Assembly (NCBI GenBank): GCA_037137395.1
Contig: JBAXKK010000001.1
Location: 78,108-142,107, forward strand
Origin: Elusimicrobiota bacterium
Lineage (GTDB): Bacteria; Elusimicrobiota; Elusimicrobia; Elusimicrobiales; UBA9959
Direction: 5' to 3'
DNA length: 64,000 bases
In this document: one piece after another, positions 23,348 through 40,900 of the stretch
How the letters are laid out: every line of letters starts with the position of its first letter
Position numbering within the stretch: the first letter of the stretch is position 1
Notes under the pieces: model-generated
The model's input: only the letters and a program-made list of their open reading frames with translations
Database searches by the model: none
Told to the model about the DNA's origin: nothing
Program-made: the position numbers and the translations under genes

Positions 23348-23400
23348 CTTGGTTAACTCCAGATATAGAATCCGCGTCGCTTATTTATACAACAAATACG

Positions 23401-23606
23401 GCTATCCCAAGAAAACAATAAGGCGACGGCGGGTTGGCAGGGGTCCTGCCAGCCATGGGACCCATCGGGCCTGCGGCCGGCCCGGCGACTTCGCGCCGGT
23501 TCCTCCTCGGCCCGATTCAACCCATGTCTGTCACCCCCTTAGCCCCCGCCGTACTTAAAATCGTCAAGGGAGACGTGTTTTTGTAATTATGGATTTGTGG
23601 GATAGC
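23401..23606. repeat. Long imperfect palindrome (23426-23552) inside short inverted repeats, MITE-like
   Basis: GCTATCCCA at 23401 and TGGGATAGC at 23598. Internal nested stems ACGGCGGG/CCCGCCGT, CATGGG/CCCATG, ATCGGGCC/GGCCCGAT and CCGGCG/CGCCGG. Confidence 0.5.
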
Positions 23607-23737
23607 ATCGTGGCAACATCGTTTTACTGTAAGGATGGATTGACCAGCAGATTGGTTAATCGTGCTTTATCTAAATTAAGGGTGGTATGTTATTTGTTGT
23701 AACGCGAAGGCGAAGCCCAATTAGACAGCGCGGATGA

Positions 23738-23951
23738 CGGGGAACCGGATAGCGAAACCGTACCGGAGTGGACTGGGCTACCAGAGGTTTGCTACGGACA
23801 CTGTTTTCGCTCGGCGCTTGCGTAAGCGCGCCGAGCGAGTGGAGCCTTGCGACACTGGGCCCGATCCGGAAGTGTGCCCCGACGCATGCAGTGTCCGATA
23901 GCCAAGCAAACTGCGGCAAAGTCCACCCTGATTTCGCGTTCCGGTTTTCCG
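23738..23951 (+). ncRNA. Candidate structured ncRNA or palindromic element, copy A
   Basis: Rod fold: CGGGGAACCGGA/TCCGGTTTTCCG, GCGAAA/TTTCGC, GTGGACT/AGTCCAC, GTTTGCT/AGCAAAC, CGGACACTG/CAGTGTCCG. Apex is shared with 40668-40809. Confidence 0.5.
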
Positions 23952-24136
23952 GCAGCCTCTACGCCAAATTATTGACTGACTAAACTTGGATAACCAAGAA
24001 CCGCAAGGCCTACTCCGGCCTAGGTCTTTTAAGTATGAATATTTACCCTTAAGACCCTTATTGAAATTTGCAAAATAAAATAACATATAAGTAGCGGCTT
24101 TTGAAAATGCCGCCGGGTATAATCAGGAGGAAATGC

Positions 24137-40516: not shown

Positions 40517-40667
40517 AGTAAATCTGCTCCCCGCTATGTATAGGATTTAATTATTATAACATAAAACCGGAATGGGCCCGGTTACCGGTAAACGTCGCGC
40601 CCGGGCCCCGGTTTTCCTGCCCCGGTAGCGTCAAGACTTGTGTGTGTGTTGACAATGTAGGGTTTGC

Positions 40668-40809
40668 GGGTCCTGTCAGGGGCCCGGAACGCGGAACCGG
40701 CGTCGCGCACTTCCGTTGCGGGCCCAGTGTCGCAAAAGCTCCACCCAGCCTCCGCGCTCCGTATGCTCGGCTTCCGGACGGTTCCGCTTATCCGGTTCCC
40801 CTGCCACCC
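40668..40809 (-). ncRNA. Candidate structured ncRNA or palindromic element, copy B
   Basis: Minus-strand rod CAGGGG/CCCCTG, CCGGA/TCCGG, GCGGAACCG/CGGTTCCGC. Apex GTGGAGCTTTTGCGACACTGGGCCCGCAACGGAAGTGCGC is nearly identical to copy A. Confidence 0.5.
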
Positions 40810-40870
40810 ACTCCACCGGCATCGCCAGAGGTTTATCCTTTCAAATCATACTTTGCCTGCCCGCGTTCCG

Positions 40871-40900
40871 TTGACAGGGGCAGGCTCATATCGCTATATT
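40871..40900 (+). promoter_or_regulatory. Sigma70-type promoter for the GT2/GT-C operon
   Basis: TTGACA (40871), 18 nt, TATATT (40895). Confidence 0.55.

Follow-up and report, generated by a model that had tools for sequence, protein, structure and literature searches.

The two copies, A and B, of a folded repeat that lie in the window (the whole 64,000-nucleotide stretch of DNA analysed, on contig C1 of a 2.7-Mb Elusimicrobiales assembly) are, in the explanation that we prefer and consider somewhat probable, non-autonomous modular repeats that fold as ssDNA and hitchhike on the ends of insertion sequences (ISs), with a second route producing insertions and swaps. The working form would be a folded ssDNA in which a basal stem of 20-35 bp carries a three-way junction with a GGA/GA loop and two capped hairpins. 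IS-derived mini-elements would carry copies to new sites, with DDE transposases acting in trans, and a separate structure-reading enzyme or an ssDNA recombination route would account for the first insertions, the swaps and the selection on the fold. The family probably originated from hairpin elements that dock at tRNA tails, because its arm in this genus mirrors the tail of tRNA-Gly.

The initial annotation had described A and B as the two copies of an element. Their shared start, the 40-nt 'apex' and the common 3' end were all found where it had placed them, as was the swap of GCGAAA/TTTCGC in A for GCGGAA/TTCCGC in B. The count of two, however, was wrong: iterated HMM searches with nhmmer gave 44 matches in this genome to the family of A and B (F1), or 43 when one module-only match is removed. 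A sister family (F2), first discovered 190 bp upstream of copy A on the opposite strand, has 25 matches in this genome, a few of which are partial or of a shorter third type, and with one tandem F2 pair merged into a single match in the count; its basal stem and GA/GCA loop are the same and its core is different. A covariance model built from 24 short F1 copies matched 47 of 60 genomes of the Elusimicrobiales family, in 6 of 13 genera, often with at least 48 copies per positive genome (the best 48 candidates being scored in each), and 6 of 150 genomes from across the phylum, 5 of the 6 belonging to the same taxonomic family. Among at least 119 matches to the core pattern, the 80 listed records comprise 70 titled Elusimicrobia or a subgroup and 10 titled only 'bacterium'. 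Three patterns gave no matches in viral contigs, and the element had no match in plasmids and phages. In four DNA sequencing runs nothing but a peak of read depth appeared over the repeats.

The comparison with Rfam bore out the earlier statement that A and B are unlike known RNA families. With Rfam 15 there were no matches in the window at the gathering score and none there to ribozyme families; the copies themselves matched at chance level only, at E up to 10, and 12 related loci gave tRNAs and nothing else. Resemblances to tmRNA, SRP, cobalamin and Csr-type RNAs were considered and dropped, the genome's tmRNA being on another contig. A literature search of main texts, for the most part open-access, found no description of this family, and it is apparently undescribed in print; the supplements of PMC5737381 could bear on novelty. 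Copy number, paired two-sided changes and the range of the covariance model together strongly support the earlier view of a multicopy, structure-conserved and unrecognised element.

It is the fold rather than the sequence that was shown to be conserved in the family, and this fold is not the rod with a conserved apex proposed initially: a long stem opens into a three-way junction. The 48-pair structure, drawn by hand from the 24 short F1 copies, has the basal stem leading to the junction, from which two branches leave: the left one holds the GGA/GA loop as well as hairpin H1, and the right one, capped by GGT, has a bulged A. In these training copies 92.9% of cells are paired and 25 of the 48 pairs show two-sided change, against 15.9 such pairs in shuffles and 14 or fewer in slid controls. 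For 55 distinct copies from other genomes the values are 95.3% and 42 of 48, against 28.7 in shuffles and 21-25 in slid controls, in an alignment that was fitted to the model and leans toward it. A and B are folded far beyond shuffles (z of -6.6 and -4.8), and stability favours the given strand in 38 of 40 copies under RNA parameters and in 37 of 40 under DNA parameters.

Paired changes would also be expected if the element were ordinary MITE cargo, i.e. a neutral palindrome that several families of IS have picked up and that is served by no dedicated enzyme, in which hairpin self-correction during replication produced the paired changes and homologous recombination the swaps. Self-correction should erase mismatches, yet the GGA/GA loop, the bulged A and the GGT cap persist while paired positions vary. 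Similarly, the basal arms, compared in 39 copies, show 44% similarity from copy to copy, yet 12.9 of 14 positions pair within a copy compared with 8.9 across copies. The invariant part of the element is the junction with its GGA/GA loop together with the GGT-capped hairpin, and not the apex.

Copy A (23728..23965, plus strand) is made up of the basal stem, the junction helix (23763-23767 paired with 23865-23869), H1 (23809-23836), a shortened H2 and three extra modules. The first is a long optional module of the GTGGA..GACAC type (23768..23803, plus), which also occurs alone and behind tRNA genes; the second is a short optional module (23839..23855, plus), for which gain or loss in place is seen at one orthologous site; and the third is another long module, inverted (23889..23926, minus), whose ends are able to pair with the first. 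The short module is the supposedly invariant apex, and by eye it can be read in 13 of the 44 matches. The two extra arms of A, described as mutually complementary, are complementary at their ends and nowhere else, and behave as separate modules: the copy at C1:77159 has the left arm alone, and a twin of A's unit on contig C26 has neither. The proposed CCG-NNN-CGG stem does appear in the single-sequence minimum-energy fold of A, but across copies the partner of this CGG is the upstream CCG that belongs to the junction helix (99% paired). Copy B (40661..40815, minus) has one short module (40727-40744) and a shortened H2; both A and B lack the H2 tip.

An IS1380, IS256 or IS4 end motif stands beside 27 of 68 copies as against 8 of 2000 random windows, the random windows being mostly coding and the motifs derived from the copies' own flanks. 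Copy A was left out of the 27 because its repeat is decayed. The first family of flanks corresponds to the terminal repeat that autonomous IS1380 elements have in relatives, and six pairs of this repeat in the genome enclose F1 or F2. The second is the right end of IS256 and holds copy B, with the IS256 right inverted repeat (40624..40645, minus) directly behind the copy and, as revealed by alignment with filled and empty IS256 elements, a remnant of the last codons of an IS256 transposase gene on its other side (40817..40859, minus). The filled element is an intact IS256 in a relative (G002), in which F2 follows the stop codon and precedes the right repeat, and it has an 8-bp target duplication; an empty homologue is present in another (G048). 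Copy B aligns on each side with both of them, and itself has one IS256 end only.

The third flank family is an IS4 repeat that borders the unit formed by F2, a spacer and copy A; the same repeat bounds elements of ~1290 bp with an IS4 transposase. In the window the left border is an IS4-family terminal inverted repeat identified by pattern match with 1 mismatch (23400..23415, plus), and the F2 element, overlooked in the initial annotation, stands back to back with copy A (23440..23538, minus). Between the two lies the spacer (23539..23727, unstranded), which holds a TGGTATGTT box. The C26 twin agrees with A's unit letter for letter over F2 and over almost the whole spacer, apart from 3 differences near the F1 end of the latter, and is without the three modules of A. 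A putative second IS4 repeat at 23983..23995 (plus) is read from the twin, where it is near-intact with 2 mismatches; both IS4 repeats are thus present in the unit shared by A and the twin, the second one being decayed in A. As a side observation, the IS4 element of these genomes (loci L417-L426) is found repeatedly beside short palindromic targets of the AAAGGCCTA type, and copy A's unit and its counterpart in a congener (G001) also adjoin such targets.

Autonomous IS1380, IS4 and IS256 elements with the cognate transposases exist in the group, as for MITEs, and this genome has a truncated IS1380 and another IS256. Target duplications are 8 bp for the F2-bearing IS256 and ~13 bp at C20:4733; none was seen for A or B, and no transposase link was found for the A-type spacer. 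The carriage of the element by three IS families suits the neutral-cargo alternative, as do direct repeats around some insertions that are absent in the congener. However, no IS end was detected in 41 of the 68 copies, and taking this together with the persistent unpaired bases we regard that alternative as improbable. The 41 copies weigh against the preferred explanation as well, as does the derivation of the end motifs from the copies' own flanks.

The congener was compared at 11 further sites besides those of A and B. It has no element at 5, keeps the element at 3 (once without a module) and has a truncated element at 1; of the remaining 2, one has F2 in place of F1 within the same IS256 flanks and the other has other cargo. 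At A's site it has the spacer and an inverted F2 without F1, and at B's site an F2 with different flanks. This comparison indicates that both whole units and their inner parts move within a genus, and shows that relatives differ by exchanges, at the same place, of cores (F1 or F2) and of small modules. Two other arrangements were observed. At C32:2747-3005 of this genome the left half of an F1 copy has given way to a pair of RAYT-type GGGGACAG repeats, and the truncated F1 has a different form in the congener. At five loci of one genome (G004; L399, L401, L403, L405 and L406) complete elements follow a conserved spacer of ~120 bp, accompanied by the variably truncated 3' tail of another element.

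The initial annotation offered either a novel ncRNA or an ssDNA hairpin element with a protein-binding apex. We prefer the ssDNA reading because of the loop types, the IS-end flanks and the swapping in place; the apex proposed as the protein-binding site is an optional module. The H1 loops of F1 in this genome are GTA (11), GTAA (10), ATAA (7), ATA (5), GCA (3), GGA (2) and other (2), with 4 unread; 38 of the 40 read begin with a purine and end with A, 3- and 4-nt forms are interchangeable and only 10 are of GNRA type. Those of F2 are GAA (12), GTA (4) and TCTA (4), with 5 unread, so that GAA and GTA triloops make up 16 of the 20 read. In the available text of PMC13037366, GCGNAGC/GCGNNAGC sequences are described as DNA mini-hairpins, the RNA version having been measured as much less stable, melting at 39 C. 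Interchangeable GNA/GNNA loops closed by C-G correspond to this DNA mini-hairpin motif, and the loop types therefore favour DNA as the working form, short of proof. ssDNA and ssRNA motifs are, according to the part of PMC5737381 seen, hard to separate computationally.

Several observations fit an RNA. In the corresponding alternative the element is a multicopy structured RNA (a 3'-UTR stabiliser, a terminator aid or an sRNA) that spread passively and whose RNA fold is under selection. The fold is strand-specific, and G-T pairs outnumber A-C by 52 to 18, an excess which fits RNA as well and which we counted against the DNA reading. The GGA/GA loop resembles a kink-turn with a one-base bulge, 10 of the 40 H1 loops read are GUAA tetraloops, copies are intergenic with many near stop codons, and in the one intact IS256 the F2 element occupies the 3' trailer of the transposase gene. 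Against this, triloops predominate and alternate with tetraloops, and the transcription signals proposed initially found no support. No sigma-70 site came up in scans of the element strand at either copy, nor a sigma-70 consensus site in the spacer with the TGGTATGTT box; the 'TATGAT' taken as the -10 box of B falls within the transposase coding remnant, and terminator-like sites near A and B are close to chance (2 against 1.2, and 1 against 0.7). The proposed direction toward envelope genes found no support either. Relative to neighbouring genes the copies lie in roughly random orientation (58/49/49/42 of 198 F1 matches), the gene behind B encodes a family-2 glycosyltransferase and the gene behind A has no Pfam match, and no common function emerged among the 76 and 108 neighbour ORFs scanned. 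We therefore consider a structured RNA fairly unlikely. No significant lagging-strand bias appeared (15 of 41 copies, p=0.12, with a weak GC skew), which we counted against the ssDNA reading. Separately, a near-consensus sigma-70 site (11/12; 40871-40900 of the window, plus) for the divergent glycosyltransferase gene begins ~12 bp from the outer edge of B's insertion.

For the folded-ssDNA reading a mobilising enzyme was sought, including the RAYT/HUH, integrase or RT neighbour that the initial annotation had proposed to look for, and none was found, a point against that reading. No family of mobile enzymes recurs in 386 clustered neighbour ORFs or in the 76 and 108 scanned. Among 44 loci of Y1, GIY-YIG, integrase or RT genes a single one has an F1 match, one gene from a RAYT. 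REPIN- or BIME-like elements mobilised by a RAYT (Y1 HUH) enzyme would explain why all 9 close pairs stand back to back, as inverted dimers, and this genome does have 4 Y1 genes. F1 copies start mostly with TTGG and sometimes with GTGG; the modules start with GTGG and end with CAC, like the 'double-foot' REPs described in the part of PMC6006769 available. However, the local RAYTs are flanked by other repeats, with no F1 module match nearby, and RAYT presence does not track F1: two genomes (G056 and G062) have 44 and 47 F1 matches among the best 48 candidates scored without a Y1 match, and several show the reverse. RAYT mobilisation is therefore, in our judgement, very unlikely.

Some other genes and boxes were noticed. 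The genome's single RT region (C52:12491-13186, L025) has an adenine-rich repeat upstream and by eye looks like a diversity-generating retroelement. A small GIY-YIG gene with an internal stop (C11:43842-44054, L016) lies upstream of tRNA-Ser, and another is directly behind tRNA-Asp on C20. About 20 palindromic CGACA-N6-TGTCGGGG boxes followed by a -10-like hexamer occur in this genome (contigs C2, C4, C5, C8, C12, C13, C15, C17, C20, C21, C47, C74, C93, C94 and C140), upstream of RAYT, ORF6N, DUF1016-like, RecQ-like and ComM-like genes (some of these names by eye), and are a candidate DNA-damage or competence operator. In G002 (L137, 1790-2700) such a box stands in front of a Gp49/HTH toxin-antitoxin pair, which itself is enclosed by F1 on one side and a short sister element on the other, the two being oriented alike.

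An arrangement of that kind is what would be expected if the elements were attC-like recombination sites bounding gene cassettes. Conserved structure with free sequence and fixed unpaired bases also agrees with such sites, and a branched attC is raised for another motif in the part of PMC5737381 seen. However, the toxin-antitoxin pair is the one such case: no cassette arrays were seen, no integrase is nearby and by eye there are no RYYYAAC/GTTRRRY core-site ends, and the copies lie mostly between housekeeping genes. We give this possibility hardly any credence.

Similar branched elements are linked to tRNA genes. At 12 of the 36 testable tRNA genes in the genome at least 10 bases of the gene's own tail recur no more than 260 nt away (10 of 1443 in the cross control; one of the 12 is an adjacent tRNA), and 8 of the 12 also have an inverted arm before the repeat. 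Several of these inserts have the GGA/GA junction and share their modules with A. Branched inserts whose two arms reproduce the tail of the tRNA in front, one inverted and one direct, lie behind tRNA genes on contigs C24, C26, C43, C59, C62, C65, C77, C113 and C130 and at loci L491-L609. Inserts of this kind are also widespread in metagenome contigs of 30-66% GC, several of them behind tmRNA-like ends. A junction pattern from two tRNA-linked inserts gave 119 metagenome matches; of the 103 testable, 75 are directly behind a tRNA on the same strand, and 62 of those 75 repeat its tail. The idea that the local target supplies the basal stem is borne out by 58 of 98 tRNA-linked elements (control 0.4%), but not by the dispersed F1 copies, of which 0 of 39 duplicate a flank. 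No integrase or RT was found among 71 ORFs near tRNA-linked elements; three small GIY-YIG genes, just upstream of such elements in metagenome loci, were included in this set because they clustered.

Is F1 related to these elements? Behind tRNA-Gly genes of relatives there are inverted tRNA-Gly tails whose beginning is like that of F1. In this genome 8 of 28 F1 arms match a reverse-complemented tRNA tail at 12 or more of 14 positions, 7 of them tRNA-Gly (controls 0 and 0); an earlier test of F1 arms against tRNA tails gave a weak result (13.1 against 11.4 of 20). The windowed test found 0 of 16 for F2 arms, and F1 arms of other genomes gave 4 of 73 (controls 1 and 5). A and B lie between protein genes, not behind tRNA genes, and neither classifies as a tRNA-tail element. 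The best score of the F1 model on tRNA-linked elements is a weak 17 bits, and with the absence of flank duplication in the 39 copies a common origin is only suggested. A tentative and broader proposal, which we think doubtful, is that F1, F2 and the tRNA-linked elements form one class of protein-less ssDNA parasites with target-tailored arms, F1 being an escaped tRNA-Gly member. An enzyme would read the junction, write the arms from the target as two copies of the tRNA tail, one inverted and one direct, and swap cores and modules; a tRNA-Gly-tailored member would have left its tRNA and colonised gene and transposon ends across the Elusimicrobiales family. If the tRNA-tailored link were true, an enzyme able to recognise branched ssDNA and to make its own target arms would be indicated. 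Such an insertion chemistry, so far undescribed, would bear on genome plasticity in uncultured phyla and might serve as a tool. The filled and empty alleles, the three carrier IS families and the precise fold make hitchhiking and self-mobility separable in tests.

Several known systems share parts of this behaviour. The E. coli rtT repeats are grouped with the tRNA-tail hairpin elements, which the family resembles through the GGA/GA junction and modules found in this genome and the F1 arm that mirrors the tRNA-Gly tail; A and B differ in standing away from tRNA genes without a target duplication, and in the 17-bit match. Correia, ERIC and RUP are examples of IS-derived MITEs and mobile insertion cassettes. 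The element is like these in that some copies have IS terminal repeats or target duplications and that IS1380, IS256 and IS4 exist as cognate autonomous elements, and unlike them in that the same cargo is on three unrelated IS families and swapped in place, that the 3' end faces the terminal repeat in the cases read and that most copies have no detected IS end. The folded attP of CTXphi type is another site recognised by ssDNA shape. With integron attC, as described in the available part of PMC5737381, the element shares variable sequence with fixed unpaired bases and a predicted recognition of ssDNA shape, but in contrast to attC and CTXphi attP it has a three-way junction and no core sites, cassette arrays or integrase link. 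Like REP/REPIN/BIME and CGTC-tagged REPs, so far as the available parts of PMC3733652 and PMC6006769 describe them, it is intergenic, patchy, mosaic and of high copy number, with head-to-head dimers, and the reverse strand of many F1 copies ends CGTC..CCA. It differs from REPs in its length (140-270 nt against 20-65), its branching, the free sequence of its stem and in that no flanked RAYT gene was found. The CGTC families are also without a known transposase, large bacterial palindromic-repeat families without a known mobiliser being reported for these repeats in the part of PMC3733652 available. The element, for which the RAYT, attC and Rfam comparisons came out negative and the MITE comparison partly positive, works like a REPIN/MITE hybrid with attC-like conservation of structure.
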